Assembly: GCA_973895155.1 (NCBI GenBank) | Contig: OZ316893.1 | Span: 14,786,645-14,850,644 of the forward strand | Reading direction: 5' to 3' | Origin: Marsupella aquatica | Lineage: Eukaryota > Plantae > Marchantiophyta | Length of the DNA: 64,000 nt | Shown here: piece after piece, positions 641-26,012 of the stretch | Layout of the letters: every line of letters begins with the position of its first letter | Position numbering within the stretch: position 1 is the stretch's first letter | Program-made: the position numbers and the translations under genes | The notes under the pieces: generated by a model | Seen by the model: the letters and a program-made list of their open reading frames with translations, nothing else | Database searches by the model: none | What the model was told of the DNA's origin: nothing

Positions 641-3075
641 CTACTTGTGCTGCAAATGCAAAACCTGCAAAGTAGCACGGAGTCTTGAGAAACTCTCCAA
701 AGGAATCACTTTGGTAAAGGCATCAGCGGGATTGAGCTTTCCATCAATCTTGACTAGCTCAAAAGTTTTATCAGACACTGCTTGCCTGATAAAATGGTAC
801 CTGATATCAATGTGCTTCACCCTGCTATCCATCACCTGGTTAGCAGCCAAGTGAAGAGCACTTTGACTATCACAATTTAGAGTCATTTTGCCATGCTCTA
901 AACCCATCTCCGCGATCAACTTATCCAACCATTGCTTCCTTTGCTGCTTCTGCTGCTGCAACATACTCTGCTTCTATAGTAGACTGAGAAATGCACTTCT
1001 GCAAGGTAGATTTCCAACTGATACATCCTCCTCCAAGAGTGTATACAAACCCAGTTGTAGACCTCCTTGTATCCAGACAGCCTCCATAGTCAGAATCTAC
1101 ATAGCCAACTAACGTTCTATCTGATCTGTTATCAAATAGTAATCCATAGTCATGTGTTCCCTTCACATACCTGAAAATCCATTTCACAGCTTTCCAGTGT
1201 ACCTTCCCTGGATTTGACATGAATCTGCTAACCTTGCCCATCGCTAGGGCCAAGTCAGGCCTAGTACAAGTCATCAAATACATCAAACTACCTATTGCCT
1301 TCTCATAAGGAATCTTAGTCATCAGACCTTTCTCCACAGCATCTGTAGGAGAGAAAGCCGATGATAACTTGAAATGTGAAGCTAAAGGAACACCCACTGG
1401 CTTACAATTCTCCATGTTGAATCATGCAAGTACTTTCCTCGCATACTGGCCTTGACTCAAGCACAACTGTCCAGTCTCAGAGTTCCTAAAAATCTCCATC
1501 CGTAAGATCCTCTTGGCCTTACCAAGATCCTTCATCCGGAATTCAGCACTCAATTTTGCCTTGAGACTGTCAACCTCAGATTGACCTTTAGCCACAATCA
1601 GCATGTCATCCACATAGATCACCAGAATGATGAAACCAAATACATCATTCTTGACTGATTTCGTATACACACAAGGATCATACACCATCCTTGTAAAACC
1701 TTGAGCAAACATGAAATCATCAAACCGCTTGTTCCACTGTCTGGGAGACTGCTTCAATCCATACAAGGACTTGAGCAATTTGCAAACTAAGTTCTCTTGG
1801 CCCTTTTTCATAAAGCCTAGTGGCTGTCTCATGAAGATCATCTCTTCCAAGTTGCCATAGAGAAAAGCAGTAACAACATCCATCTGATCCATCACCAGAC
1901 CAAAAAACACAACAAGCTGACACAAGATCCGAATTGTGGAATACTTAGCCACCGGTGAAAAGACCTCATTGTAATCCACTCCTTTCTCCTGAGTGAATCC
2001 CTTGGCAACAAGCCTTGCCTTGTAAATCTTATCTCCACCCTCTGAAGGACTATCCTTCAACTTGTAAATCCACTTGCTGTCCACCACTTGTTGACCTCTT
2101 GGAAGCTCCACCAGCTCCCATGTCTTGTTGTCACTCAAAGATTGCAACTCCCTCTCCATTGCTGCATTCCACTCATGCTTCTGCTCTGAAGCACAAGCCT
2201 CACTATACGAAGAAGGCTCTCCTTCTTCCAAGATCAAAGCCATATCATCTTCATCAGGTGCAATGTTAATATCATCTAGCTTAGATGAGTCTGCCCATTG
2301 ACCATACCTGGTAGGAGCTCTAGTAGAACGACTGGAAGTTCTTCTAGTAGATGACTCAGGCTGATCTGCTGCTGCTGCTGGCTGAATTTGAGGTACCCCA
2401 ACAACAATCTGCTCCTCTTGTTCCATCACAGGAACCAACTCCAAGCCTGAAGCTTCTCCATCTCTCCTGTCATGAACAACATCATGACTAATCTCCCCCT
2501 CAACCCGGTTCGGGATGGGAGATTTCCCCTTGTCAGTATGGGAGTCCTGAGAACTCTCCCCCTCCTTTGATGATCTGGATTCATTAAAGGACACATCTCT
2601 ACTAACAATTAGTTTACAGGTTACTGGATCCCATAACCTATAACCCTTCATACCTTTCTGATAGCCAAGGAAAATGCACTTCTTTGACTTGGACTCCAGC
2701 TTGGATCGAAGCTGGGAAGGTGTAAGCACATAAGCATCACATCCAAAAATCCTCAGATGTGAGTAATCTGTTGGACACCCGTACCTCATTTCAAATAGCA
2801 TCTTGAATCCAATAAAACTGGATGGAGAAAAATTTACCAAATAAGCTGCAGTGTTGACAGCTTCAGCCCAAAACTCATGTGGTAAGCATGATTGACTCAA
2901 CATACTCCTTGAGCGGTCCAATAGTGTTCGGTTGAGTCTCTCAGAAACACCATTCTGCTGAGGAGTATAACTTGTTGTGAGATGGCGGGTAATCCCCTGC
3001 TCCTTACAATACGTTCCAAATTCCCTGGAACTGTATTCACCGCCGTTATCCGATCGAAGATATCTCACCTTATTA
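641..3075 (-). pseudogene. Copia pol 3' part (integrase core, RT, RNase H) with a premature stop at 1422 and a frameshift near 960
   Basis: RSDNGGEY, TPQQNGVSER, YKARLVAKGF, YGLKQSPRQW, IYVDDMLI, GYVDSDY, KHIDIRYHFIR. Confidence 0.95.
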
Positions 3076-3079
3076 CACT

Positions 3080-3625
3080 ACTACTATTTGCCAATTTTGC
3101 GAAGGCATTTTATAAGAGGAAGAAAGCTTTGCAATATTAATCTCATCGCTAAACTTGCGATACGACACGCATCGTACTTAGCGAATCTATCCACATCGCA
3201 ACACATAATTGCGAAACTCACACAATTGCAATATTTTACGACACTTCACGTATCGCAAAACATTTTTGAAGTAATTATCAAATGTTGAACAATTTAGCGA
3301 TCTTTACCGCTTCACAAATTCATTGCGATGTGCCGGACAAATAAACAGTTGCGAATATTTTAGCATCTCAAAATGTTTTCCGAGTCTTATTGTCTCGCAA
3401 ATGAGCGATGTCTACGGAATGGCTAACTTGCGATAGTAATAGGCTCGCAAATCCTGTGCCTGTGTAGGGTCTCATTTTGCGAATGTTTTGGTTTCGCAAC
3501 CTTGAGAGCATGGTATCTTCGGAAGTTTGCGATGAGTTCATGATGGCAATTAGCGAGCATTTCAATATCGCAAAGTTAGCGATGAGTTTGCGGGGGTAGG
3601 GGTTTCACAAGATGTTTCGCAAAAT
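3080..3625. repeat. CACTA left subterminal repeat cluster (TTGCGA/TCGCAA in both orientations)
   Basis: Many ttgcga/tcgcaa occurrences next to the TIR; mirrored at 17770-18290. Confidence 0.8.
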
Positions 3626-4270
3626 ATTATGAGCGCTTCAAAGAGGTGGAAAAGGAATGGGATTGGGGAGGAAGGGTAAAGGAGGGAGGATACATGTAAT
3701 TTTTAGGGAGGGACAATGAAAAGGAGGAGGAAGGGAATGGGGCTAGGAGGGACAAGGAACGGAGGGATCCAAGGGGGAGGATACAGGTTTAGGGGGCACA
3801 AGGAAATGAGGGAGGAGGAAGGGTATGTAGATATAGTTTTAGGGAGGGTTTGGATTTAGGGAGTGAAAATAAAAAGGAGGGAGTTTAGGGTTTAGAGAGG
3901 GACAAGGAAAGGAGGGAGGGTATTGGTTTAGAGAGGGACAAGGAAATGAGGGAGGTTTAAGGGTATAGGTTTAGGAGGGAGGTGAGAAGCTAGGTTGTAT
4001 AGGTAAGAGTGGGGGACAGGGGTGGAAAGTAAGGAAAGTATAGGGTTGAAATAGAAAGGGGTTGGGACAAGGAGAGGAAGGAGGAAGGAGGGTTTAATAA
4101 GAGGGACAGACAATGAAAGAAAGGAGGAGGGAGGTGGGTACAAGTAATAAGGAGAACGGCTAGGGGGGGATTAGGAAAGCATGGAGGATAGAGGACTACA
4201 AGCAACATGAGTTTTCTTTGCATAAAGTCTACCAAAAGGTGGTTTGAGTGTGGGGTAGGGATGGGAGATA
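3590..4270. repeat. Purine-rich low-complexity tract (G/A on +) with scattered tttaggg-like words
   Basis: Direct base composition. Confidence 0.7.
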
Positions 4271-4425
4271 TAGAAAACAACATTTGAAAATGATATACTT
4301 ACAAAACATAAGTTTATTGATAATTGAGAAGCACATATTTCTCCATTCTACCGAGAAGAGAAATCTTCATATCATCAAATCTAACTATATATCCGTGTAG
4401 CTATATATCCACAAACACAGAGCCC

Positions 4426-6854
4426 TCAAACTTGGTCCTCATCATCTTCAGGTTGGGACACAACCAGAATATCAGGCTTTTCCCCAACGATTGAACGAGA
4501 CCGTGGCACATATGTGATGACAAGTGACCATTCCTCTGGGTTTGGGGGGTATGGAATACAGAAACATTGTTCTACATGACTTGGAAAAGTGAACGGCTCT
4601 GATGTTTGCCAATGACATGGCTGGAAACTAGTGGCAGACGTCTTCAGTCGTGTAAATCCACACTCATCTTGAACCACAGTAGGATTGTTACCTACAAGGT
4701 TCACTTTGAACCACTTGCACTTGAAGACATACTCTTCAAACTTTGATTGTGCATCATAAGATATCACTAGAATCTCTTCTATCTTTCCATAATGTGACAC
4801 AACATCTCGAATAATATTTGTGTCATGGCGACTGCTGCGGGAATCAGAGAATTGTCCTTGAACTCCACAATCAAAGGTACGACCCCTCTTCTCATCAAGG
4901 GAAGAAATCCTAAAATCCATCAAACCATAAGGATATGTTACACAAAAATAGACACAAACATATTCCAATTAATGGAACACACCAAGAATCTGCCTCTTCA
5001 ATATATGTGCTTGTATTACAAATGAATTAAATTAAACCAAGTGATTCAAATCAAAGGTTACTAAGGTAGATGGAGATCACCTGAAATGTCTTCCTTGTGT
5101 CCACATTGCTATCCTTGTTGTAACCACTCTCAAGGGACCATGAACAATGGTACGAACATCATCTGTGATAGCTGGAAAATGTAATACACTCTCTCCCCTG
5201 ACCACCATGTCATCCACCTCAACTAACTTCTCCTTCATATAGTCAAGGTACTTTGGAAAAATCCTTGGTCTTGTGCTGTTACTTTTGGCATCCTCATAGA
5301 AATCCCTCCATTCTTCCATCATAGTGTTGTTACTCAACATGAATGTGGTCAGTTGTTTCACCTCCACTGGTATCAACATGCGAGTTTTCCTAGCACCTGT
5401 TAAACGATCCTCTTCATCTTCCCTCTTCTCTACCCAAGTACGGGGAGAGGTACAATCAATTGTGGCCAATATGTTACTACAATAGAACATACTCTCAACT
5501 GCTAAGTATCATGTAGCCATGCTTCCCTCAACCCGTGCACGGTTACGTACATAACCTTTTAACATTGCCATGTATCGTTCTAGCCAATACATCCACCAAC
5601 AATGCACAGGACCTGCAATGGCCACCTCATGAACAAGATGAACAAGTAAATGCACTTGATAGTTAAAAAAGGAAGGAGGAAGGGCCTTCTCCAACTTGCA
5701 TACCACCTCTGTTGCCAAAACCTCCATCCCAGGGATCTCGTCAGTATATATCTCCTTAGAGCATACCCATCTCAATAGTTTTCCCAATGACCAAAGGGCA
5801 TCTTGCACTTCTTCACTTGCCAAACCTATTATGGCCACAGGCAATATGTGCTGCAATAACCTATGGTAGTCATGTGTCTTGAGATACCTTGGCCACTTAT
5901 GATTGTCCTCCATCCCAAAGGCCTTTCGGAGATTGGCACCATAACCAGTAGGAAACTGCATGTCTCCTATGCGATTCCGAAACTCCCTTCTCTGGCCAAC
6001 AGGAAGCACCCATGGAGCTGAAGGTCGATGCTCGATCCCTGTGACAGGATCACTTATGACCCACACGTCTGGATGCATCTCAAGATCCTCACAAGCCTCC
6101 CTGAAGTTAGTGTCTTTCTCTCCATAGAAAGCCTTTATCAAAGCCTTTCCCACATTTCCCTCAATGTGCATGGGGTCTAATAGATGGCGGATCTTCAACT
6201 CACCCCAATAGGGCAAAGTGGTTAATATACTCCACCTTGTCAAGCCACTACCCTCAAATTGCATGGGATCCTCTGGGTCTGCCACTCTTGCAGCCATGTC
6301 TTTCCAGTGTGTAAAAGTTGTTGGCTCAGGTACATCACGCTCGTCACCAAAGGGCATATCAATAGAGGAAAATAGTAGCGGGTCACGCCTCATCTGATGT
6401 CCCATTGGAAGAAACTTTGTATGCCCAAGATAAACAATCTTGCAAAGATGTGATGAATACTTGGCTACATCACCAAGGCTTGGGCCACAAGTGGAGCAAG
6501 CCTTGTAGCCTTGGGTTTGCAACCCACTCACAAAGCCAAATCCTGGTCATATAAACACACATTATGTTAGGATTAGCACATGGAAATGAGGGGATACCAT
6601 GCATTAGAATATGATGCATTTAAACAACAAAGTTCTTACCTGGGTAGTCATGCATGGTCCACATACAAACCCCTTTCAGTTTGAAAACCCGTGGGGTACC
6701 CCCTGTAGTCTTTCGACCATCATATGCCCATACTCCTTCCCATAATTTCTAGAGTTCCTGAACCAGTAATGTCAAATAGGTGTCCATGTTCTTCACCTTC
6801 TTTGGCCCTGGGATAATCAAAGATAGCAACAAAAAACACTTTTTCATGGACAAC
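4426..6854 (-). pseudogene. CACTA transposase (TnpD/Tnp2), 3' exons: Transposase_21 C-terminal part and DUF4218/DUF4216-like regions
   Basis: SMKKCFLLLSLIIPGPK, WTMHDYP, SGLQTQGYKACSTCG, RHLLDPMHIEGNV, LKTHDYH, HLLVHL, WMYWLERYM, FKCKWF, EPFTFPSHVEQCF; GT-AG introns near 6545-6640 and 4910-5080; premature stops. Confidence 0.9.
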
Positions 6855-9800
6855 TGTCACCTGCTCATCAAACGATTTACACGACAAATACGGTATTTAC
6901 TCATACTAAAATCGTTTGTTATCGTATGACGGGAACGTGGAGGGACGCTATTAGGATTCTATTGCATGTAGGATGAGTATGTTTATTTCCGCTCCCAAAA
7001 ATGTAGTTTTTGATCAAGTCTACCGACTAGTCCCGCTACTTTTGATCAAGTCCCATGGACTACGCCACACACACACTCCTACTGGTCGCTGGTGGAGTGC
7101 TGTCACCACCCCTACTCACATGGTCAACCAATCCGTGCAAGTACTCTTTAGACACTTCTTGGGGAAAGAACACAGTCGTGAACCCGAAAAAATAACGCCA
7201 CACCTAAACTTGAGGAATCAAACCAAATCCATATCTTTTGGCAAAACGTCGTAACACATTGCAAGGACAACCCGGCCTCTTGCCGTCTGCCCAACTACTG
7301 CCTCACCGGGGCAAGTGTTACACCTCTACCTCACTACTCTGGCTTGATTCCCCCTTCTGGCTATGAGCTAACTTCCCTAAGCAAACACTAGACTAAGTTC
7401 CCCCCCACTACTCCGGGGCTCTCCCCCTAAATACCAAAAACACACCAAGGCACCCCTCCCGGGGCCACAATGATGGCGGCCTACCCTAGCAGTGCCGCTA
7501 AACCCTCCACTAAGAAACCTCTAAACTAAAACCATGTGGCACACACATGCTTCTAAACCCTAAACTAAAAATAGGGCCGACGATGCCTTCGACGGCGCCC
7601 CAACATTGCTCCGTGAACCATGAAATTGCAAGGAACCCCACAATGGCCGAAATTAGGCGCCCTTCCACTTGCACTTATGAGTTCACCCCTAGATAGCTCT
7701 CCTCCTCATGATAATGAATCACTCAACCGCTCTTGAAACGGACAACGGACGACCAAGTTATGGTCGTTTTAGTATCCCGTAAACCCAACTTCGTCGGGCC
7801 CTAACTTGCTCATCCTAGCTCCGTTTGAGGAGCGCTGCCTCTTGTTGGAATCAGCTCCGCGAGCTCTTTCCAACAAGCCCGTGAGTGACCCCTCACAAAA
7901 AAGTTGGAAAGTCAAGGGGCCGTACAACCACGTCCGTACGACCACTCTAATCCTCCTCCTCTTCACTCACGGTGCCCTGGCTTGAGCCCCGTGAGTGGGC
8001 CTCCTCATCACTCTCCACTAGAGTGAGTGCCACTTCACTCCTCTTTTGCTTTACTGGGGTACTCCTTGTGCTAGTGCTCCCCTGCTTTCTCAAATTGGCC
8101 AAGGCCTGCCACACCTTAATGTACCCCTCACCAATGGTGTCCTTCCATAAGGCCGCCTCTTCACCGGACAGCAACTCCAACGGTAAAACCTGCCCGGTGG
8201 CCATGGGAGTCCCAGGGGTGACAGATCGGGGTGGCATCCCCGTGTTGACCTGAGCTTCTCGTAAAGATTTACGTACCTCCCTGAGCTTTTTCTCTAAGCC
8301 CTTGCTCTTCTCTTGGCTCTTCTTGGCTGCATCCAACAGGGGTCCATACTTCCCACTGACTTCCTTCACCACCATCTCAATGGCCTTGGAGATCAAATCC
8401 GGGAAAAGTGTGGAGCTAGGTGTGCAGGGGCTCTTCCGTTTCCCCAGACTCAAGGCCTCACTCCTCTTAGCCCTTGTCTCAAAGATCACCATTTGACTCC
8501 GTAGTGCTCCCACCTGGGCTCTTAACTCCACCACTTCTCCAGAATTCTGCTTCTCGTTGGCCAATGCCTGTTTCAATACTCCAACCTCTTCCACTTCCTT
8601 GGCCTTGATGGACAAGGCTCCCTTCAAGTTGGAGATCTCTTCGTGAGCTGCTTGGAGGAGTTTAACCTTCTCATGAATGGCCTCCTCCTTGGCCTTGATC
8701 ACCTCCTTCATAGACAGGGCACTCTGCTCCAAAGTCTCTACTCTGGCGGTGGCCTGCTTGAGAGAATCTCTCAATGCGTGGACTAGCTTGAGTCCCTCAT
8801 GGACTCCCTCCCGGAAATCCCGTAACTCCGCCAGGTAGACATCAGGAATACCGTAGACCAGGGGCTCCTCCGGATTTCCCACAAGTGATTCAAGCCACTC
8901 CATTGTGGAGTCCTCATCCTGGTTTTCTTCCTCTCTATTATCATCCCCAACCGCCGACGATGATCCCTCCATTAGTTTCCCCAAGATGGTAGTGGCAATA
9001 CTCCTAATTTCCGTGGTAAGGGATGATCCAGTGTCTTCCTGTCCCAGGGAAACAATCCACCTTTTTGCTCTGGCTAGCAAAAATGACCCCATCAAATGTA
9101 CAGCCCCACCTGGTTTCACACTCCCGGGATCGGCGTCCAATAGCTTCTTCAACCCGTAGTACCACCATCCGTACACATGATTGGGCTGGATAGTTCTTGA
9201 TGTCCATAGCTACCACAAAATGCTCTCCATTCACCACCCCGGATTGCACATTACCAAGGACCCGTTGATGAACCTTGGCTAGAAATCCCTTGTGCTCAGC
9301 ATCCTTGACGGCGGAAAGAGGAATGGAAGTAGTGGAGGTGGGATTAATCACCCAACCGACCACCATTGTCAATGTGAGTTCTCCCCTTATGTTCCGAGGT
9401 GTGAATGAGAATTGCTGGTTCTCCAGAAACAGAAGCTTAGCTAACTCCATATGGGGCACTACCCGTTGGAGATATTCAAAGTAGATTCCTTCCGTACGTA
9501 ACTCCATCCCGACCCAATGTTCCAACTCTTCCCCGAAGGGATTGTAATCTCCACCTTCATGAACTCCGTGAGCCTGGTGGCTTGAAAAATATTCCTACAA
9601 TCCTCCATCACCTTGGCGGAGGTTTTGGGATAAATTCGACGAAAAACCTTCCTCATAACTAGTGCTGGACTTGCTGCCGGTCCAGTACTCATCGTAGCGT
9701 CTCTCTCTTCTCTCTCTCTTGCAATCAATGTCCCAACGTAGTCACGGTAAGCAGCCTTGTATCTCCGAATGTGTGCCGCACTAAACTCCGGTTGATCCAG

Positions 9801-11210
9801 CATCCATGCATCCAAAAATCAAATCCTCAATCACCAAATCCCATCAACCGTAGCAATGTCAATTCCCTGGCCCGAAGCGGCCCCCGTATCCCGATCAATC
9901 AATTACTCTCAATTCCCTCAGAAGCCACTCCGTGCTGCTGCCGCTAATGCCCGGAAGAATCACGCCACCAAGCCCCACCAATCTACCATGAGAGAGAGAG
10001 CTTCAAAAATAATTAGAATGTGGAGAGAGCTCGGCAATGAGAGAACTTGCTTTCGGCAGAGTAAGAAGTCGCAAAGAGAAGGGAGGGAGAGAAAAAAATG
10101 AATACAAAGGAAAGGGAAGTAAACCCCTTTCTTCACCCTCCTCATTGAGTTTTTTCTCCCGGCTCCCCTCACGCCATGCGCCCCGGCTCGCGGCCCTATG
10201 AAGGGCTCGCGTATGCCGACACGCGGCCCTCCTCATCGACGTCCCCGCACCTCGCTGCAGGCGCCCAGTCCTCCAAGGCCGGGGGAATTTAATTCCCCCC
10301 TACTCGCAGCCCCTCATGCGGGCCCTTCCCATGGGAGCTTAATTGCCCCCCCCACTTCACGATCTTCTCCTCCCGGCTGTGCCCCGGCTCGCCTCTCGCC
10401 CCAGCTTGCCTCGCGCCTCGCTCGACTCACCTGGGCTCGCCCACTCGCGGGCTCCTCCCAGCTCCGGCACCCCGCCCGGTACCTCCTGGCTCCCCACAAG
10501 CCATGCGCCCCGGCTCGCGCCCTCTGGCTCGGGTTCTGCTGGTGGGCTCGCAGCCCTATGCAGGGCTTGCTCCCTCCTTGCGGTACCCTCTTTACTCGTG
10601 GAGCCCCGCTTAGCACCCTCGCCCCGGCTGCGCTGCGCTTTCTCCCCCTCGCTGCTGCATCTACTTGCGGCTGCGGCTGGTGGGCTTGCGGCCCTCCGTT
10701 TGTTCACTCGTGGGGCCCCTTTTAAGAGGGCTCCTTGAGAGGGGTTTAATGCCCCCCAACTCCTTCTCGCCATGCGCCCCGACTGACCTCCGTGACCCGG
10801 CTTACCTCATGGAGATGCCAGGTGGCGTCCACAGGGGCTGCCCCGTATGGACCCCTTTACTCCAAAAACTTTTAACCTCTCAAAAGAACTCATTCTCTTC
10901 TTTTGGCCCTTGTTGTGGTTATACCCATTTAACCCCAAAAAGAAAAGTTCACCTCTTGGACTTATAGGGGGAACCTGACAATGGTTCAAGCAAAATGGCA
11001 AGGCCACCTTTTTGCCCCCCCCTCCAGGTTGCCATGACCATTTAGAACAATTCTGAGAAGGACATAAAGTAAAGTCCTCTTGCAGCACCTACTTGAAAGG
11101 ACAGAATTAATGCAAAAAATTTTAAAAATGGCTTATTTACATTGATTATTTACATGGCACAATCGAGTAAACAATTATTGAAGATTTTTAGTAACGGGAG
11201 CCCCGTCACA
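6855..11210. mobile_element. 4356-bp insertion with TG..CA ends and a 5-bp TSD; probable giant solo LTR of a Gypsy-type element
   Basis: ACAAC TSD at 6850-6854 and 11211-11215; splits the transposase exactly at NYNLPPWL|SMKK; no gag/pol; 6855-8010 recurs inverted at about 22862-24037. Confidence 0.8.
7947..9815 (-). pseudogene. Frameshifted ~620-aa frame of unknown function with a coiled-coil C-terminal half, inside the TG..CA insertion
   Basis: Three overlapping ORFs (9459-9815, 9004-9525, 7947-9176) read as one protein-like sequence; heptad-rich E/K/A/L stretch; ends in EEEED*. Confidence 0.6.
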
Positions 11211-12179
11211 ACAACCATGGTGGAAGGTTGTAATTCATGAGAACCACAAGCCAGACCGATGTAGGTCTCCCCTTCCCTCCAAGTGAATGAGGGCTAACTC
11301 CATCTGATGCCAACCCCAGTCGCAAATGCCGAGGGTCACGCTCAAAATCTGGCCATGTTGATTCCACATGTTTATGAGCAGGAGAGTCAACTGGTAATCG
11401 CATGACATCGGGCTCCGAATGATGTTTCTTGTGCCATACCATCAACTCGGCCAAGTCAGAACATCTATACATCTGCAACAAGCGAGGAATTATGGGGAAC
11501 CAACGAACTGCTTTCCTTGGTACCTTCTGGGTTAGCATGTTTGGCTCATACCGTGGCTCATGACACACTGTACATTATGTGATATGGGTTGTATCCCCGT
11601 GAAATAACATGCAATCATTCACACAGGCATGAATAATATGGTAATCCATGCCAATGGATGAGAGAACCTTCTTTGCATCCTTCCAAGTCCCTGGCAACAC
11701 ATTCTCCGAGGGTAACATCAAGTCATGACAATATTCAAATATGTATGATAACATAGAATTGCTTGCCTTGTGTGTTTGGCTTGAATGTTCAAGAGCCCCA
11801 ATATGGCAGAAAGACGGCTCAACCGAGCACCCTCAAAAATAGGTGTTCGAGCATGTTCCTCTGCCTCTTTCCATTGTTGTTGTCCCTCTAGAGTATGTTA
11901 TGGCCGTGGGTCATTTGAAGGGCCAGCCTCATGACCAATGTGAGGCACATCATCCTCAACATCGGCACCAAACCAATCAACCATGAAGTCATCCATGGCT
12001 CTATCTTGATCATGCATGACCTGGTCATCAGTCCGAGGTGCAGCTTGCTCATCAGCACCACCTACATCATTACTTGATGAGGAATCACCCTCTGATGGTT
12101 GTCCCTCTTCTGGCATACCCATCTCCCAATATGTTGCTCTCAACCTTCGTGGTAACATTTGTTGAGATGGTTGCGCATT
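11211..12179 (-). pseudogene. CACTA transposase 5' exon (Transposase_21 N-terminal half)
   Basis: AG acceptor at 12180-12181; GMDYHIIHACVNDCMLF, CHEPRY, RWFPIIPRL, RHLRLGLASDGVSP, NYNLPPW; stops and a frameshift. Confidence 0.9.
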
Positions 12180-12392
12180 CTATGCACATTACAACCAAAA
12201 AACCTCCTCATGTATATTTGACCAAGTACAACAAATTAAAATAGACTTAACACCATTCATTCAAGACATTAACAATTAAAGTAAATGCATGGGCTAAAAC
12301 CTTATTACTCCAAAATGAGCCCAAAGGCCATATATATATAATAGTAAATGGGAAGTCCAAAACAGGTGCAAGAGGATAAAGGACATGATTTC

Positions 12393-13223
12393 CTAATCCC
12401 ACTCATAGTGTGTGAATAACTCATCTCCTGCTCTAATGGTCCTAGTAGCAAGAACTAAGCAATGGTCCTTATGATATGTCGTGCCATATGGTGCCGGCAT
12501 TGGACCATCAGTAAAAACCCACTCACAATTGGCCCTACGCTTGGGCCGAGTCCCCACAGTACTATTTATGAAACCAACAATATTCCCATTACGTATGGGA
12601 TCACCGTCTATCACCCGCTGCTCACTATACCTTCTAGTGCTACCATCAAAAGTATCCATCTCTAGAGCATATGTTTTCCACTCAGGATGTTGTGCAAGGA
12701 TCATGTTCCAATGTCTTCTCTTGTAGATGGGTCCACCGTATGGGAACAAAGTAGGACCATCTCTACCACGAACACTTGACCCACCCTCCTCATCCATGAT
12801 GATATCCTCACAAGCAAATACTCCATATCCATGTCTCTCTCCAAGTGTGGAAGTTTTCACAATCCAACGTCTACCCCAAACCACAATCTCCTCATCAAAA
12901 TCTGTAAAATAAGGCAAGCCAAGAGTGATAGGTTCCCAATCCTTGATGATAGAGGCACACTTGCCAGTGAATGAACAAACACCCCACCTACCCTGAACTA
13001 GTGTTCTGGATGGGTCATTGGGTGCTCGTGGCCTCCTGTTGGACGGGGGCCTGGACCGGGGTCTTCATGTCTCAGTGGGCACATGAGGGTGTTCCCCTTC
13101 TGTCCCATGACTGGTACTGATTCCCAAACCCAAGGCTTGTGAAAGTGCATTGCCTATAGCATCTAAAACTCCTTGTGATGGGACATAGGGTGGTGATGTC
13201 ACCAATCTACGCATACTGGATCC
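12393..13223 (-). CDS. SET-domain protein exon within the CACTA element (one TGA at 13065-13067 upstream of the SET domain)
   Basis: STLGERHGYGVFACEDI...PYGG...IDGDPIRNGNIVGFINST...ANC...LATRTIRAGDELFTHY match SET motifs GxGVFA, (R)FINHS-like and GEELxxxY; phase-0 AG acceptor at 13224-13225. Confidence 0.8.
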
Positions 13224-13334
13224 CTATTCCATGCAAACACCCACAAACAACCAAATGTGTAAACCATATGTGTAAACATTGATTCACCTCTAAAAATAAC
13301 AGTAAAGAACGACAATCAATTGAAACAAACTTAC

Positions 13335-13559
13335 CATGTGGGATGAAGAAGCCCCGGGAGTAAGACCTCTATGACGTCCATATCTCTCGATATGTTGAGC
13401 ACACACATAAGATTTTTGAGAAATTTGGCCCACACATCTGGTGCAGTCACAAAGTCTTCGGGGTGGACCACGAGGACCGGTAACCTCGGGCTGAGGAGGA
13501 GGGGGTATATCGTCATCGGAGGAGTACTCACTACTGGATAGTTTAGAGGAAAAGGACAT
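13335..13559 (-). CDS. CACTA exon 1 with a transposase-associated Zn-ribbon-like motif (CxCxxC...H)
   Basis: MSFSSKLSSSEYSSDDD...RRLCDCTRCVGQ...CAQHIERYG; phase-0 GTAAGT donor at 13334. Confidence 0.65.
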
Positions 13560-13664
13560 ATCCACTGCCACATTACATTGCATGTAGGGCATGATTAGGA
13601 AAAATTAGGCCATATATAAAGCAATTTTTAAAAAAATGAACTCAAAAAACAATTAGGTTGGTTT

Positions 13665-14720
13665 ATACATGGGGTTTTATTACCCTTTATATTTGTTAGC
13701 ATGAAACCCAAATTAAGGTGAGTGTCATGCAAGAAGAAACCACATTATAACCTTTGGGAAAATTGTAATACCCTATGTCCTAAGTGAGGTTAGATTATTA
13801 CCTGAATGAGACCCGGGCTCAACAGTGCCTATAGGTCACGTGGCTTTTGGAACATTTGCCAAATCTAGAAGTAGGAGGAAAATACTGGAAACAAAATGTA
13901 AGTTTGGATGGTAATTAGCAGCCGTCAAGTTGTGGAATCTTAGACATTTACCCATATATATCATGGCACAACAAAGAAGGGCAAGCATAAAAATTTGTAC
14001 TAACAACATTGACTGTATACATGATGTTATACCTTTTATATGCCCGGGTTCCCACAATGCATATGCATTAGACAAAAGTTGAGGTAGTAGTGCTGGCCCT
14101 GCGTTGTATCATGATTACATGGGTTTTCCCCTCAATTGTTAGCATAAAACCCTAAACCCTTATCCCTCCTCGAGTGAAAGGTGAGTGTCATGCAATAAAA
14201 ACCCACCCTAGACCCCTAGGAAAACTCTAAAGGTCTAAGCCCAGAATGAAGTTGGACAATTACCTGAATGAGATCAGCACTCAATAGTGCCTGTAGGTCG
14301 TGTGGCTCAATGAACATGAGCTGAATCTAGAAGCACGAGGAAAATACTGGAAACAAAAAGTAAGTTTGGATAGCCATTAGCTTCTCTCAAGTTGTAGACC
14401 CCCAAACATGTGCATATACATATTCTTGCACAACAAAGAGGGGCAAGGTTTATGAACAATCTCTTTATCAAACCCTGCTAACATACATGTTTAAATATAC
14501 CTTTTAGATGTCCGGGTTCCCACAATGCATATGCATTAGACAAAAGTTGAGGAAGCAGTGATGGTCCTGCACTGGATCATGATTACATGGGCTTTCCCTC
14601 AATTGTTAGCATAAAACCCAAAACCTCATCCCGCTTCAAGTGAAAGGTGAGTGTCATGCAATAAAAACCCACCATAGACCCTTGGGAACTCTAAAAGCGT
14701 AAGCCAATGAAGTTAGCAAA
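13665..14720. repeat. ~465-bp tandem duplication (about 2.2 copies) between the divergent CACTA genes
   Basis: ggtgagtgtcatgcaa at about 13718, 14180 and 14647; ggttcccacaatgcatatgcattagac at about 14047 and 14515. Confidence 0.8.
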
Positions 14721-15349
14721 AACCTAAAGGGTCAATTCCCTTCAACCATCCTATGCTTCTCTCTACCATAATTATATGTCACCCCTCTTGGTTACCCTCC
14801 TAAGATACCATAAAAGTAACCCAAGATACTATAAAACTGAAACCTCTCTTTCAAACCCTCCTAAGTTGGCCTAAACCCCAAACCCAAAACATAAAACCCC
14901 TCCTAGCTCTTACCTTCCAATACATATAACCCCAACCTTCATAAATAAAACCCCCTGCAAACCCAAAACATAAAACCCCTCGTATCTAAGCCAATCTAAG
15001 CCCAACCTTCACAAAAGAAACCCTCCCCTAACCAGGCCAAACCCCCTCCTCTTACCCTCCAATATAACTCCTTCAATTTTCTAACCCCCCGATCCTTATC
15101 TGATCACATCCCACTAAAATGCAACATAATCCTCTACTTCTACCCCATTTAATGTTCATAAGCCCCCTTAGTATCCCTAACAATACATCAAATACGCATG
15201 CGAGACGGGGGTTATGGCAAAACCAAATAGCAAAGGCGTTTGCGAATCCTGAAGCTTCGCAAAGATTTCATTTGCGAAGCTTTTTGCGAAGGCAGATGCA
15301 TCGCAAATTGCGATGTGAAACGAATCGCAAAGCCTAATATTTTGAATCC

Positions 15350-17570
15350 TTATGGATTGCCAAGCGCGGACAAGGCGGATTCAGTTCATTCAGGCCTGAG
15401 GAGAGCAACGAGGGCAAGGGCGGAGCGATGGCGAGCAAAGAGGGGACTGGTGGTGATGGAGGAGCTTCTGGCAGCAGCGGAGGCAACCGAGGGGGGGGGG
15501 GAATCGATTGAAGGCAATTGTGGATGAGCATTTTTCGGTTGCACAGTTGAGTCAAATTGATTTCAGCAGTCCAGCAGGGCTGGCATCATTGAGTGCCCTT
15601 CTGGGCCAAGCCTTGCAAGCAGGTCTCACTATAGGGCAAGCAACAGTAGAGGAGGATGCAAGGAAGGCAGCAGAGCAGGCGGCTGCTGAGAGGAAGCGAA
15701 AGAGGGACGAGAGAGCTCAGGCTAGAGTGCTCTCGCCTCAAGCATTGGAAAAGAAGAGGAGGAAAGATGAGAGAGACCTGATCAGGAAATAGAGGGAGGA
15801 GCAAAGAAAGAAGGAGGCAGCAAGGAGGAAGATGCCTCTTATTACTTTAGAGGATGAGGGGATTCCCACCGAGCTTGCTTACAATGGGGCCAAGAGCACA
15901 ATCAGGCACATTGTATCCACAAATTTTGCAAGAGGAGTCGAGTGGGGCACTCACTCAAAGGCAGAGTAGAAGCGAGTCATCAATCAGGTGAAAGATGCAT
16001 TTCGAAATGGAGGAGAGATGGATTCACAGTGGCTTGCTGACAAAATTTCAAACTCCATGTCACAAGCTAGATACCATGATAGAATGAAGATCAGGTCTCA
16101 CCTTAGAGATTTGGAGGAGTATAGGAATTTGCAGAGGCCGCTGCAATTCTCAGAAGATATCTGGCAGGCCTTCTACCAGACAGAGGTGAAGTTGAAAGCA
16201 GCCAGGCTCCTCAATGATTTCACAGAGAAGCTGGCAAAGGCTTGAAGGGCAAAGGAGGCCGGGAAGTCTGACCGAGACCTGAAGGTGATGGAGCAGAAGG
16301 TAGCCCAGCTCCAATAGGTTGTAGCAGAAGTAGGCGATCCACCCAACAAGTTCCTGAAGGCAGTTGAGCGAGTCCGAGACAAGCCCAACATCACCCACAG
16401 GCTGGGTCAAGGTGGCCTCCCTGGCCTCAAAGCAGCATTTGTGAGTGCACCTCCCTCTCCTCCCTTGACTTCTTGCTACTCCAATTCCTATTCCAACACA
16501 CTTGCAATGAGCCAACTCTTTCTTGCATTTCCACCAAGTAGTTACAATTAGACTTGTTGTGTAAGATTAGGTCACGTACAGTTGCTTCCCTCTCGGGGTT
16601 TTGCCATGACAGAGTTTGCGATGCATTTGCGATGCGAGTAGCTTCGCAAATCCTCCACAAACCTTATTATATGCCTTTTTTTTGCTTACGTTTGCGAAGG
16701 CGTTGCAAAGACGTTCGCATCGCAACAAGCTTTGCAAACATAATTGTCCTTATGATTGCAAAGCTGACGCCTTCGCAAAATTTCAAAAAATTGAATTTTT
16801 AAATTTTCCGGTCGTTTAAGTGTTCTTTGAGGGTCTTCCCCATATATGCCACCCTCCATAAACCCAAAACCTTGATGCACCACCCCACCAGCCCCAACAA
16901 ACCCCCTAATTTTTAGAAGCCATGTGAATCGGGTTATGGGTTGGTGTTAACCCAATTGTGCTGGTTTTGTTTTGGCTTAGTACAAGAGGTACAAGAGGAA
17001 GATTACGGCGGCTGAGATGGAGGTGGGCCAGAAACATGGGAAGGAGCATCTCTTTCAGCAAGTTGATGAATTACTGGTGAGCATTTTTAGGTTATTACAT
17101 TCATTGCAATTTTGAATGAATATCTCTTTTGTTCACACTTGTAAAGAATATGAGACTAACAAACACCCTGGTTTGCTAATGGAAGCAGGGAGGGGAGGAT
17201 GGTGACTCCCATACCGAGGGTGGCACCGATAGTAGTGATGAGGATGTGGAGGGGACAGGGGAGGGGAGCACATCTCCTGCTACTCAAGCCAGGCCAACTA
17301 GCACTGGAGACCAGTCATTTGCATCAGCACGTTCCAGTGGTGCTGGGGGTGGTAGCACGGCAAGCCAGGGCGGTGGAGGTGGGGATGAGGACGAGGATGA
17401 GGATGAGGGTGACCAAGAGGACGAGGAAGTCCAGGTTGCACCCCCCCAAGAGCATGCAAGGGCAGGGAGAAGGCCAAGGGGAAGAAGGCAAGGAGGGGCA
17501 GGAACACTCCTTTCTAGCTCTATGTAGACAGGTTGTAGCTAGAGCACTTACATTGAGTTCACATGCATAG
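15350..17570 (+). pseudogene. CACTA second gene (TnpA/ORF2-like), multi-exon, divergent from the transposase
   Basis: Continuous protein-like frame 15500-16440 through TAG/TGA stops, ending HRLGQGGLPGLKAAF|gtgag; further exons near 16980-17076 and 17190-17570 with an acidic D/E tail; start uncertain. Confidence 0.6.
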
Positions 17571-17769
17571 CGACCAGCATGCATGGCCGTGGCGCTTTAG
17601 CTAAGGGTTTTTACCCTTCCATTTTGTAACTTTTGTACTTTTTCAGTAATGCCATTTTAATTGCGGCAGACTGGGTCAACATCACTTTCCTCCCTCCTTC
17701 AAAACCCATGAATGGTCTCCCTCACCCTCACCCTAACCCAAATACACAAAAACCCATAAAAAATACATT

Positions 17770-18290
17770 TTGCGAAGCTTTTGAGAACCAACCCCCATCT
17801 CAAAGAGCTACGGCGAACGTATCGCAACAATTCCGAGAACAAAAGCATCGCAAAGCTTGCAATGTTGTCTACATCACAACCCTAGCAAAGACTACCTCTC
17901 CGCACATTTGCGAGTTAAATGCCTTCGCAACAAAGCGGTCATCCAATTTTTGCAATCTTGCGAGTTAGTTTGCATTGCAAGTTATAGAGAAATTCAACAT
18001 CGGAAATTGCGATGTAAATGTTATCGCAACACGAGCGATCCATTTGTTCTCGCAAAATAATGAAATTGGTCGTTTCTCAATATTTGCAAGGATAATGCCG
18101 TCGCAACGTTGCGGAGATGTTGCGAAGTATTTAGAATCACAAGTTGCGAAGTAGTTGCGAAGGGCCGTTTGCGAAGGATTTAAGATGGGAAGTAGCGAAG
18201 ACGTTGCGATGCGAGTAAGTTTGCAAAGTGGGTATTTTGGATTTTGTTTCCTTTATATGATGCGAAGGGTGACGGTTCGCAAAAGAGGTG
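17770..18290. repeat. CACTA right subterminal repeat cluster (TTGCGA/TCGCAA)
   Basis: Dense motif cluster next to the right TIR. Confidence 0.8.
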
Positions 18291-18308
18291 CATAGTGTTG
18301 TAGTGTTA

Positions 18309-22231: not shown

Positions 22232-24037
22232 TACGGTTTTGAGGCCGTACGGACGTCCGTACGGAAGGAGGTCCCGGCTTTGCAAGGGAAGGAGGAGGTA
22301 GTAGCACATACGAGGAAACCGTGATCCGTGTTTTGCAAAGCCGGGGGAAACGTGTTGTACGGACGAAATGAAGGTAGACGGTGCCCTGTAAAAACTTAAA
22401 CGATCATATCTTGGCCATTTGACCTCCATTTTGTGCACCGTTTATGGAGTCGTGATCAGGAAGAGGAGGGCTCCTCAGATATGTTTTCAGAAATGAAATC
22501 TGAGAAAATTTTAGTTTCGACAATTATAGGGGCCCCCTCCTTTTACAACGAACCGGTGGTGGCAAACAGGAGGATCGAGGCTCAAGCCAAGGCACCGTGA
22601 GTGAGGAGGAGGAGGACTGATGAGGAGACCAACTCACGGGGCTCAAGCCAAGGCACCATGAGTGAGGAGGAGGAGGACTGATGAGGAGACCAACTCACGG
22701 GGCTCAAGCCAAGGCACCGTGAGTGAGGAGGAGGAGGACTGATGAGGAGACCAACTCAAGGGGCTCAAGCCAAGGCACCGTGAGTGAGGAGGAGGAAGAC
22801 TGATGAGGAGACCAACTCACGGGGCTCAAGTCAGGGCACCGTGAGTGAGGAGGAGGAGGACTGATGAGGAGACCAACTCACGGGGCTCAAGCCAAGCACC
22901 GTGAGTGAGGAGGAGGAGGACTAGGGTAGCCATACGGACCTATCGTACGACTTCTGGATTTTAAATTTTTTTGGAAGGGTGCAATCACGGGCTTGTTGGA
23001 AAGAGCTTGCGGAGCTAATTCCAACAAGAGGCGGCGCTCCTCAAACGGAGCCAGGATGAGTAAGTTAGGGCCCGGCGAAGTTGGTAAGTAAATGATATTG
23101 AAACGGCCATAACTTGGTCGTTTGGTGTCCGTTTCGAGAGCGGTTTTGTGATTCATGATCAGGGGGAGTAGGGCTACCCAGGGGTGAGCTCAGAGGTGCA
23201 ATCGGAGTGGCACCTAGTTTCGGAAATTATGGGGTCCCTTGCATTTTTTGCGGTTCACGAAGTGATGTTGGGGCACCGTCGAAGGCACCATCGGTCCCAT
23301 TGTTAGATTAGGGTTTTAGGAGCATGTGTGTGCCGCATGCTTTAGAATTAGGGATTTTCTTGTGTGAAAGTTTATGCAGGGTTTTAGCGGCACCGCTAGG
23401 GTGGCCGACACCATGGTGATCCCGTGAGGGGTGCTTTGGTGTGTTTTTTCAGTATTTAGGGGGAGAGCCCCGGAGTAGTGAGGGGGGGAACTCAGTCTAG
23501 TGTTTGCTTAGGGAAGTTAGCTCATAGCCAGAAGAGGGAATCAAGCCAGAGTAGTGAGGTAGAGGTCTAGCACTTGCCCCAGTGAGGCAGTAGTTGGGCA
23601 GACGGCAGGAGGCCGGGTTCTCCTTGCAATGTGTTACAACATTTTGCCAAAAGATATGGATTTGGTTTGATTCCTCAAGTTTTGGTGTGGTGTTACCTTT
23701 TTTGGTTCATGATTGTGTTCTTTCCCCAAGAAGCGTCTAAGGAATCCTTGCACGGTTTGGTCAACCATGTGAGTAGGAGGGGTGGTGACAGCACTCCATC
23801 GACGACCAATAGGAGTGTGTGTGTGTGGCATAGTCCATGGGACTTGATCAAAAGCAAAGCGGCTAGTCAGTAGACTTGATCAAAAATTACATTTCCGGGA
23901 GCGGAAATAAACATACTCATCCTACATGCAATAGAATCCTAATAGCGTCCCTCCATGTTCCCGTCATACGATAACAAATGATTTTAGTATGAGTAAATAC
24001 GTATTTGTCATGTAAATCGTTTGATAAGCAGGTGACA
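22232..24037. mobile_element. Truncated inverted relative of the 6855-11210 LTR-like element
   Basis: About 22862-24037 is the reverse complement of about 6855-8010 and ends in ...gcaggtgaca. Confidence 0.85.
22579..22922. repeat. 61-bp tandem repeat, about 5.7 copies
   Basis: ctcaagcc-type unit starts at 22581, 22642, 22703, 22764, 22825 and 22886. Confidence 0.95.
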
Positions 24038-24759: not shown

Positions 24760-25839
24760 CTAAACAAAGTGCTCCTTACAATGTGAATTTGAGCACGTGC
24801 CCCTGTCTTCTTTACTATCTACCCTAGTGTCACGGTTGCAAGTCCCTTTATCTTTAGGGAGCTGAAACTTGGTGATGTTGTTCCTAATGGCTATAATCTC
24901 CCGCAAAAAGTGTCTGGGATTTTCTCTATGTGGACCTGAATAGTCCCTTCCTACAAATGCTTTAGCAAGTGACGTGACAAGTGCATCATCAAGTTCTGCC
25001 TCAAGACGTAAACTACATATACAATGCTTCACGTTCCAAGGAATCTCATTGCTATTGAGGTCCAACACACTATGCGTAAACTGTGACTTCCAAATTTTTG
25101 TTGCACATCTCTTACTAAGTTGATCATAAGTAATTTCATTTTTTACCTTGTCTCTCTTTATGTGCAATAGAGACCACAGTGGAGAGTTAAGAAGAAGATA
25201 ACATCTAATGTCACTTGCATGGGATAGTTTCTCAAGACAAGGCCAAAGAATTGTTAGAAGAAAATTATCTCCACCATTGGCATGCGTGTAGGGCACTAGA
25301 AATAGTCCGGTCATGCTTGGGTTGGCAAATGCCTTAAGGGGGGAGTCATCCACAAGGAGGGTGTTGGTTTCATCATATAGATTTCCAAATCCACTCCATA
25401 CCACCCGAAAATCCTTCAGTAGCACATTTGCCTTTCCGTTTGTAATGTCACGCCTTTGAATGCCTGTGTCAAAGGCTTCCACCTGTGTGAATACAAACTT
25501 AAGTTTCAACCGCTCCTCAGCAGTGAACATCAAGTTCAGCATTTTCACTGTTCGATGTACCCCAGCACATGTCCAAATTGCAACGTCAAATCGGTCAAAA
25601 ACCAACTTTAGAAACTCATGGAGCCCTGGCCTTTCTGTGTACATGCGACTAATTCCATTTTTTCTATCCCAATGCACTCCACTTGGGGTCACAACATTTC
25701 TGGATTTGCCCTTGCTTTGGAATTCAACTGAATCCCAAAGTATTTTGTTAAGATCCAAAATCAGCAATTTGCGCTTGATGGAACAAAGTCTTGGTTCTGC
25801 AAGTGCAACAAATACCAATCTTAGAGAAAAAAACCACAT
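24760..25839 (-). CDS. FCP1/SCP (NIF) family HAD-fold phosphatase-like protein, transposon cargo
   Basis: KRKLLILDLNKIL, ERPGLHEFL, FDVAIWT, LLKDF, NTLLVDDSP..A..NP; motif I is DLN rather than DxD; probable acceptor near 25799, so the true start is uncertain. Confidence 0.85.
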   Translation of the reverse strand: MWFFSLRLVFVALAEPRLCSIKRKLLILDLNKILWDSVEFQSKGKSRNVVTPSGVHWDRKNGISRMYTERPGLHEFLKLVFDRFDVAIWTCAGVHRTVKMLNLMFTAEERLKLKFVFTQVEAFDTGIQRRDITNGKANVLLKDFRVVWSGFGNLYDETNTLLVDDSPLKAFANPSMTGLFLVPYTHANGGDNFLLTILWPCLEKLSHASDIRCYLLLNSPLWSLLHIKRDKVKNEITYDQLSKRCATKIWKSQFTHSVLDLNSNEIPWNVKHCICSLRLEAELDDALVTSLAKAFVGRDYSGPHRENPRHFLREIIAIRNNITKFQLPKDKGTCNRDTRVDSKEDRGTCSNSHCKEHFV

Positions 25840-26012
25840 TTGAAGTTTGGATAGAGATCATCTCTGTCAACCCAACACAAGTGGCCAACCACAAAGAAAA
25901 TATATTTGCATACTGATCATATTCATTGAGAAACCGTAAAGAGGAGATGGATATTGATACTGATGCTCTAATTGTTAAACTTGAAGTATAATTATACAGA
26001 CTATATTATATC

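Follow-up and report, generated by a model that had tools for sequence, protein, structure and literature searches.

A broken CACTA transposon copy from a bryophyte family whose conserved SET-fold exon follows a Cys/His first exon and precedes those of the transposase

The window, that is, the whole stretch of 64,000 nucleotides of Marsupella aquatica DNA analysed here, contains a broken copy of a bryophyte family of CACTA transposons, in which a conserved exon with a SET fold lies between a Cys/His first exon and the exons of the transposase, TnpD. Positions 3076-18305 form a single CACTA element: CACTAC termini stand at 3076 and, inverted, at 18305, a 3-bp TTA target-site duplication lies on either side, and the insertion splits the integrase frame of a copia element, which reads ...FATFKNQTG on one flank and NKVRYLRSDNGGEY on the other. 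Subterminal TTGCGA repeats reach 24 per kb at the 3' end and 12.9 per kb at the 5' end, against a background of 0.17-0.2 per kb in the middle of the element and the rest of the window. The 5' terminus is common to four other loci (L006, L007, L033 and L036). TnpD is recognised on the minus strand, as is SET, by the Pfam profiles PF02992 (63.7 and 33.3 bits), PF13960 (90 bits) and PF13952 (27.9 bits, under its cut-off of 30.6). The element is a member of the CACTA/EnSpm DNA transposons, and the first-pass annotation was right to place SET within a CACTA element defined by its target-site duplication and on the transposase strand. From 5' to 3' the order is divergent gene, repeats of about 465 bp, exon 1, intron, linker and SET exon, spacer and TnpD, with the following parts:

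3073-3075 (no strand): TTA target-site duplication at the 3' end of the element
3076-3700 (minus): 3' terminus with the CACTAC inverted repeat and subterminal TTGCGA/TCGCAA repeats
4426-6854 (minus): 3' exons of TnpD (end of Transposase_21, DUF4218, DUF4216), inner boundaries approximate
6855-11210 (minus): nested retroelement-like insertion splitting TnpD, with TG...CA ends and a 5-bp duplication, ACAAC
11211-12179 (minus): first TnpD-specific exon (exon 3), with an acidic N-terminal part and the start of Transposase_21
12180-12392 (minus): non-coding spacer of 213 nt from the SET stop to the TnpD acceptor
12393-13010 (minus): SET domain with a family-specific N-terminal extension, ending 3 residues past the invariant Tyr
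13011-13223 (minus): 5' part of exon 2, a low-complexity linker with an in-frame TGA
13224-13334 (minus): intron 1, 111 nt, GTAAGT...GAATAG, phase 0
13335-13559 (minus): exon 1, with ATG, an acidic/Pro stretch and a putative zinc site, C-x-C-x2-C-x13-H-I-x3-G; candidate shared first exon
13715-14690 (no strand): three diverged copies of a unit of about 465 bp between the two divergent genes (repeat families D4, D13, D16 and D18)
15457-17520, end approximate (plus): second conserved gene in divergent orientation, broken in the window copy, with a coiled-coil exon to about 16449, a small exon at about 16981-17076 and an acidic last exon
16600-18305 (minus): 5' subterminal TTGCGA repeats and 5' terminus CACTACAAC
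18306-18308 (no strand): TTA target-site duplication at the 5' end of the element

The span 12393-13559, earlier described as one stretch, does hold the SET gene, but as two exons around the 111-nt GT-AG intron. The copy is dead, a point that the first-pass annotation missed, as it did the likely shared first exon. An in-frame TGA at 13067-13065 interrupts the linker upstream of the SET domain, so that the window copy cannot make the two-exon protein; database proteins of the family read through at this position. Its TnpD is disrupted by stops and a frameshift within exon 3 as well as by the 4.36-kb insertion, and the stop at 11900 is read as a sense codon by contigs from three of four sequencing runs, which cover this stretch deeply and with many variants and whose kind (DNA or RNA) is not on record. 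The window contributes a full-length copy bounded by target-site duplications, of a lineage sister to the Sphagnum elements.

A frame without stops (13064-12393, minus strand) carries the motifs GYGVFA, PYGG, GNIVGFINST and ATRTIRAGDELFTHY. The SET profile PF00856 matches at 26.6 bits (cut-off 22.4), with an E-value of 8.5e-6 and coverage of positions 1-104 out of 105 in the profile, and 23 of the 38 distant relatives scanned match SET at E<=0.01. With an alignment of 96 sequences, AlphaFold2 gave a model with a pLDDT of 91.6 and a pTM of 0.87; an earlier model from 27 close sequences had reached a pLDDT of 47.5. In a Foldseek search of the PDB with 293 matches at E<=0.001, every match listed was a SET protein, and the best structural superposition (VIA-align) had a Z-score of 12.2 and an rmsd of 2.5 over 124 residues. 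By sequence profile, the PDB match to SET came with the 96-row profile only, a single sequence or a narrow profile giving no SET match. The window protein is a member of the SET fold family, in agreement with the compact SET fold without internal stops proposed at first pass; a SET profile match, whose absence was to count against that proposal, is present. Set1, EZH2, SET8, SET7/9, NSD2 and LegAS4 are tied at Z 12.2-11.2, within about 1 Z unit, and PR-domain proteins also appear among the fold matches at Z 10-11. Because LegAS4, Set1, EZH2 and SET8 are tied, neither origin nor substrate follows from the modelled fold, and no subfamily or substrate is readable from its matches. A Pfam scan of the full-length homologue P0067 found none of the flanking domains of the histone methyltransferase subfamilies (SET1, E(z), SET2, SUV39, SET8 and ATXR5), and the protein is classed neither with any of these nor among the active methyltransferases.

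The comparison set consisted of 36 metagenome loci, 24 of which extend far enough downstream to judge TnpD. The TnpD exon directly follows SET in 21 of these 24, starting 139-150 nt past the SET end where both ends could be measured; the remaining three have a truncated SET that runs into unrelated sequence, at a junction that two of them have in common. Exon 1 is found upstream of SET in all 19 informative loci. In addition, nine gene models of Riccia sorocarpa (P0070, P0071, P0130, P0155, P0161, P0162, P0169, P0189 and P0245) pass from SET-family into TnpD-type sequence, so that the linkage is seen also at 35-45% identity. By the Nei-Gojobori method, comparison of the window with three single loci gives a dN/dS of 0.20-0.22 for SET (Fisher p<1e-11), and comparison with 22 loci a median of 0.23; the values are 0.11 for exon 1 and 0.10-0.16 for the core parts of TnpD. 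The spacer behind SET has a DNA identity of 47-52% to six relatives, as against 79-81% for SET. Since the 36 loci are closely related and come from a small number of samples, they amount to about one independent contrast with the window, to which the Riccia evidence is added. Among themselves they have a dS of about 0.06-0.10 and a SET dN/dS of 0.79, like decaying copies. The first-pass annotation had called for dN/dS across CACTA copies, and the result is purifying: the transposon-borne SET gene that it described is neither neutral nor confined to a single copy. Within the clade of the window and the Sphagnum-type loci and in the Riccia models, SET is almost certainly, as judged from these comparisons, a standing part of the family under purifying selection and not a passenger. 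The lower dS of SET (0.63-0.68 vs 0.9-1.3) was also considered as a possible mark of an alternative exon; this was rejected, as four-fold sites do not differ (p 0.36-0.66).

A search with the SET part matched 59 of 85 candidate proteins, with names from five Sphagnum species and Calypogeia fissa, and the best relatives are 70-82% identical to the window. P0067 (343 aa), which represents a cluster of 360 sequences, is a full-length protein comprising exon 1, linker and SET. A profile search extended the family to 131 clusters at 50% identity, with a few spurious ones at the tail. Of 30 representatives examined, 13 bear an organism name, in each case a liverwort (Riccia sorocarpa in 11, Calypogeia fissa in 2), and eight of these 13 had been chosen for showing a Cys/His or TnpD part. 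In a tree built by a quick method and midpoint-rooted with no outside SET as root (75 rows, after 25 of 96 alignment rows covering fewer than 140 columns had been dropped and four added), the window falls into a group with unnamed proteins and one from Calypogeia (support 91), this group adjoins a Sphagnum clade (96), and the Riccia proteins fall in deeper lineages. No link to a transposase was seen for the deepest members of the family (P0143-P0195). Two of the deep-branching members with an NS-type SET, P0146 and P0149 from Calypogeia fissa, lack both the Cys/His exon and a transposase part; they are possibly domesticated copies or cargo of other elements. Pattern scans, which reach close relatives only, found none of 43 candidate stretches in viral contigs and none of 25 in prokaryotic contigs to be related.

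Between element copies attributed to a leafy liverwort and to peat mosses (P0049, P0067; window SET span 12393-12947), the SET protein is 70-80% alike, and intron 1 of the window (13224-13334) is 65-68% identical to that of Sphagnum-type loci (L003-L018). Such closeness of both coding and intron sequence between such distant hosts hints at a possible horizontal transfer. Many gene models of Sphagnum and Riccia annotated as 'SET domain-containing' are probably parts of transposons and would inflate counts of host methyltransferases. Another gene model, P0072 of Sphagnum balticum (1720 aa), combines WRKY and DEMETER-type domains with a piece 96% identical to TnpD of the family, which probably reflects an insertion that the gene caller fused into the model.

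In the canonical SET motif, the active-site Asn is followed by His (NH), and Arg stands three residues before it. Within the family, the residue after N149 is Ser in 88 of 93 alignment rows and His in none, and the position three before N149 is Gly in 83 of 93. The alignment thus presents NS for NH as a trait of the family and not as decay of the window copy. The other catalytic positions are well kept: G63 of the GxG motif in 84 of 86 rows, N149 in 84 of 93 and Y202 in 70 of 74, and G63, Y/F91, Y114, N149, E197 and Y202 all together in 51 of the 65 rows spanning them. Conservation of GxG, Asn and the active-site Tyr positions extends across about 25-80% identity. The tail after Y202 has at most six residues in 39 of 70 rows, the window protein ends three residues after this Tyr, and there is no post-SET. 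These counts bear out the kept catalytic Tyr, the change of NH to NS and the missing post-SET read from the window at first pass. A small residue predominates at position 200, two residues ahead of the Tyr; under the Phe/Tyr-switch rule this would permit di- or trimethylation.

The closest solved match, both by profile (E 2e-7) and by Foldseek (E 5.5e-8), is LegAS4. Y91, Y114, N149 and Y202 align with its Tyr135, Tyr159, Asn181 and Tyr220 (numbering matched by hand), which are four of the six residues changed in a catalytically defective LegAS4 allele (10.64898/2026.05.29.728679). The sixth changed residue, Tyr231 in the cSET helix, has no counterpart in the family, because most members end a few residues after the Tyr. 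LegAS4 is described as an H3K14 methyltransferase (10.64898/2026.05.29.728679); since in the alignment this active enzyme has Phe and not His after the Asn, the missing His is not decisive for SET activity. Catalysis by the SET protein is thus plausible as a prediction. The post-SET is described as always contributing to the cofactor site (PMC3868588), and activity would probably depend on the conserved N-terminal extension, on a second subunit or on a partner. Biochemically, the family raises the question of SAM binding by a SET domain that has NS in place of NH and lacks the post-SET lid.

The donor of exon 1 is GT in phase 0 in all 19 loci with exon 1, and GTAAG in the window, also in phase 0. 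In 20 of 21 sequences, the window among them, an AG acceptor stands right before the start of the TnpD similarity, in the same phase; in the window it reads GCATAG (phase 0). These conserved in-phase sites suggest that exon 1 may join either SET or TnpD. Among database proteins with exon 1, the linker follows at this same junction in 11 of 14, and none of the 14 has the joint of exon 1 to exon 3; contigs of the four runs (run kind not on record) contain no joint at the predicted splice sites. The spacing C-x-C-x2-C-x13-H-h-x3-G in exon 1, a pattern written after the sequences had been seen, is that of PF13963, the domain opening TnpD of angiosperms. Compared with PF13963, exon 1 has no Pfam hit and HHalign probabilities of 1.8% and 18.7%, ranking 7 of 1260 window pieces. 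The simplest reading would make exon 1 the first exon of the transposase and SET an alternative last exon inside its first intron.

The second gene (15457-17520, plus strand) has a DNA identity of about 74% in 11 loci and a dN/dS of 0.18 relative to L029. Its main exon is intact at L029:386-1615 and L035:658-1884 (both minus strand), and is interrupted by four stops in the window. The gene starts with a coiled coil and bears a THRLGQGG motif reminiscent of TnpA. It has no Pfam match, and in a comparison with the C-terminal part of P0083, which is presumably TnpA-like, 98 of 1000 shuffles reach the observed score. Its identification as TnpA is unsupported, as there is no Pfam match and the pairwise likeness to P0083 is not significant. 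Short parts of the neighbouring repeats of about 465 bp (13715-14690) match L005 and L036. The nested insertion (6855-11210) holds a 420-aa coiled-coil frame, and over its first 1.2 kb matches 22576-24037 as an inverted copy. Elsewhere in the window, an intron-less 365-aa frame (24760-25857, minus strand) carries a NIF/FCP1-type phosphatase domain (PF03031, 58 bits) amid retroelement sequence, and a 1134-aa copia-like frame (26515-29919, minus strand), read by eye, seems to pass from the integrase start straight into reverse transcriptase, which would fit an in-frame internal deletion.

The explanation preferred here starts from the SET fold inside a CACTA element bounded by target-site duplications and takes its retention by purifying selection, as a standing family part, to be close to certain. 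Exon 1 and exon 2 would very probably form a protein of about 350 aa with a zinc module, linker and SET domain, as gene models and splice sites indicate. The joining of exon 1 to exon 3, with SET skipped, would probably yield TnpD with the same zinc module. Methyl transfer, for which the SET product is a predicted SAM-dependent lysine methyltransferase, is moderately likely, and would probably involve a partner or second subunit that completes the SAM pocket in place of the absent post-SET lid. These steps taken together have somewhat less than an even chance. The further step to a histone substrate and an anti-silencing role is drawn by analogy and is doubtful; by it, the SET product would methylate proteins in the element's own chromatin, keeping the element transcribed and mobile, and the common Cys/His module would, by conjecture, bring SET and the transposase to the same site or partner. 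The first-pass reading of a transposon-borne methyltransferase able to alter the element's chromatin is therefore supported in part: the SET-fold gene on the transposon is established, while its activity, a histone target and any chromatin effect are predictions. Precedent for both splicing and anti-silencing is described for Spm (10.64898/2026.08.24.746577; PMC13547354). Bryophytes are reported to silence transposons partly through H3K27me3 (10.1101/2022.10.24.513474). If the proposal is true, a transposon-encoded histone writer would add a route beside the plant anti-silencing that acts through DNA methylation (VANC, TnpA), and the tractability of Marchantia and Physcomitrium would make self-chromatin rewriting by transposon SET genes directly testable. 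The boldest form of the proposal, which is rather unlikely as a whole, is that bryophyte CACTA elements have carried their own lineage of lysine methyltransferases without post-SET since at least the early liverwort radiation, as an exon that the transposase gene can switch in or out. Splicing would then join a zinc module to one of two partners, the cutter or a chromatin writer marking the element's own nucleosomes, and the unit would have moved between liverworts and peat mosses.

Other explanations of how SET came to stand next to TnpD concern its origin and its gene. The broken state of the window copy and the dN/dS near 1 among close loci would fit a fragment of a host gene captured recently and neutrally by this copy, in the manner of Pack-CACTA elements. 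Such a capture is, however, extremely improbable: the position and splice sites recur in relatives, dN/dS is about 0.2 between lineages, the linkage is present in Riccia, and a canonical host SET gene is absent among the named homologues; for the clade of the window and the Sphagnum-type loci it is ruled out by TnpD following in 21 of 24 loci together with the dN/dS of 0.20-0.22. A better case can be made, catalysis aside, for SET and TnpD as two separate head-to-tail genes. All 21 sequences have a Met at residue 8 of exon 3, where TnpD could start, from a separate promoter or a non-coding exon; this Met recurs in two of the three Riccia models of that lineage, Arabidopsis En/Spm families are described as using spliced as well as split-gene layouts, the latter in four families (PMC13547354), and the protein joining exon 1 to exon 3 was not found among the database proteins with exon 1. 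Against this stand the conserved in-phase acceptor right before exon 3, the residues N, P and S kept before its Met between the window and most loci, and a spacer of merely 139-216 nt. TnpD would moreover lack the N-terminal Cys/His domain (PF13963) that 11 of 18 longer TnpD hits carry, and the two-gene layout appears improbable on balance, if less so than a capture.

What the SET product does is open to two further readings. It could be selected and yet be catalytically dead or dependent on a partner, a pseudo-methyltransferase that would bind histone tails or act as a decoy for host silencing complexes. The family-wide changes of His to Ser and of Arg to Gly in motif II, the absence of the post-SET tail and the PR-domain proteins among the fold matches are consistent with such a role, whereas the retention of GxG, Asn and three active-site Tyr across the family, and the activity without this His of LegAS4, the closest solved relative by profile, argue for an enzyme; we give a dead or dependent protein a limited chance. 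An active lysine methyltransferase might instead modify the TnpD of the element, the product of the second gene or a host silencing protein, and so tune transposition directly. A chromatin-reading domain is absent, the fold matches name no histone site, and one unit producing SET and TnpD would put both together; the listed solved neighbours are, on the other hand, mostly histone methyltransferases, and a non-histone target seems unlikely.

SET on DNA transposons is already in print, and the land-plant CACTA layout with a selected SET exon is a variant of this arrangement. HarbingerS elements and the MuDR elements of an oomycete (Phytophthora) carry SET genes (PMC12730594), as do Helitrons and the red-algal Plavaka elements of the EnSpm/CACTA superfamily (10.1101/2025.02.11.637652), and the available text of the two papers reports a function for none of them. 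A land-plant CACTA with SET was not found in the literature searched, which lay outside Repbase, most subscription journals and bioRxiv supplements, among them the EnSpm set curated for the Bostrychia paper. A close counterpart, Plavaka PAG2, is likewise a PF00856 accessory gene on an EnSpm-superfamily transposon, with its function also described as untested, but it pairs SET with a DNA methylase domain (PF01555), as part of a cassette of three genes (10.1101/2025.02.11.637652). The SET of the window has no methylase partner, PF01555 giving no Pfam match in window pieces or full-length homologues, and is set apart by its layout, lying after a Cys/His exon on a Transposase_21/TnpD-type element of land plants. 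HarbingerS, Phytophthora MuDR and SET-bearing Helitrons share with it a DNA transposon's own gene for a SET-type lysine methyltransferase, but belong to other superfamilies and hosts, and a shared-exon layout is not described in the available text on them (PMC12730594; 10.1101/2025.02.11.637652).

A parallel in gene organisation is provided by TnpA and TnpD of En/Spm in maize and of Arabidopsis Spm3, where one unit gives a transposase and a regulatory protein by alternative splicing, and TnpA of Spm3 is reported to lower CG methylation on cognate copies (PMC13547354; 10.64898/2026.08.24.746577). In the window, where alternative splicing is predicted from splice sites, the second product would be a SET-fold protein and not the DNA-binding TnpA, for which PF03004 found no Pfam match in the element. 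With the compact SET enzymes LegAS4/RomA of Legionella, SET8 and those of giant viruses, the protein shares a minimal core with GxG, YxG, IDG, GNxxxYIN and GxExxxxY, and the matches to viral SET models have E-values as low as 1e-7; it differs in its identity of 18-30%, in having no ankyrin or cSET part and in an added N-terminal hairpin with helices. VANC has an unrelated fold and acts on DNA methylation through sequence-specific DNA binding. As an element-encoded protein of VANDAL MuDR transposons that serves the epigenetic state of its own element, VANC offers the analogy for the anti-silencing role that the SET product may have (PMC12730594).
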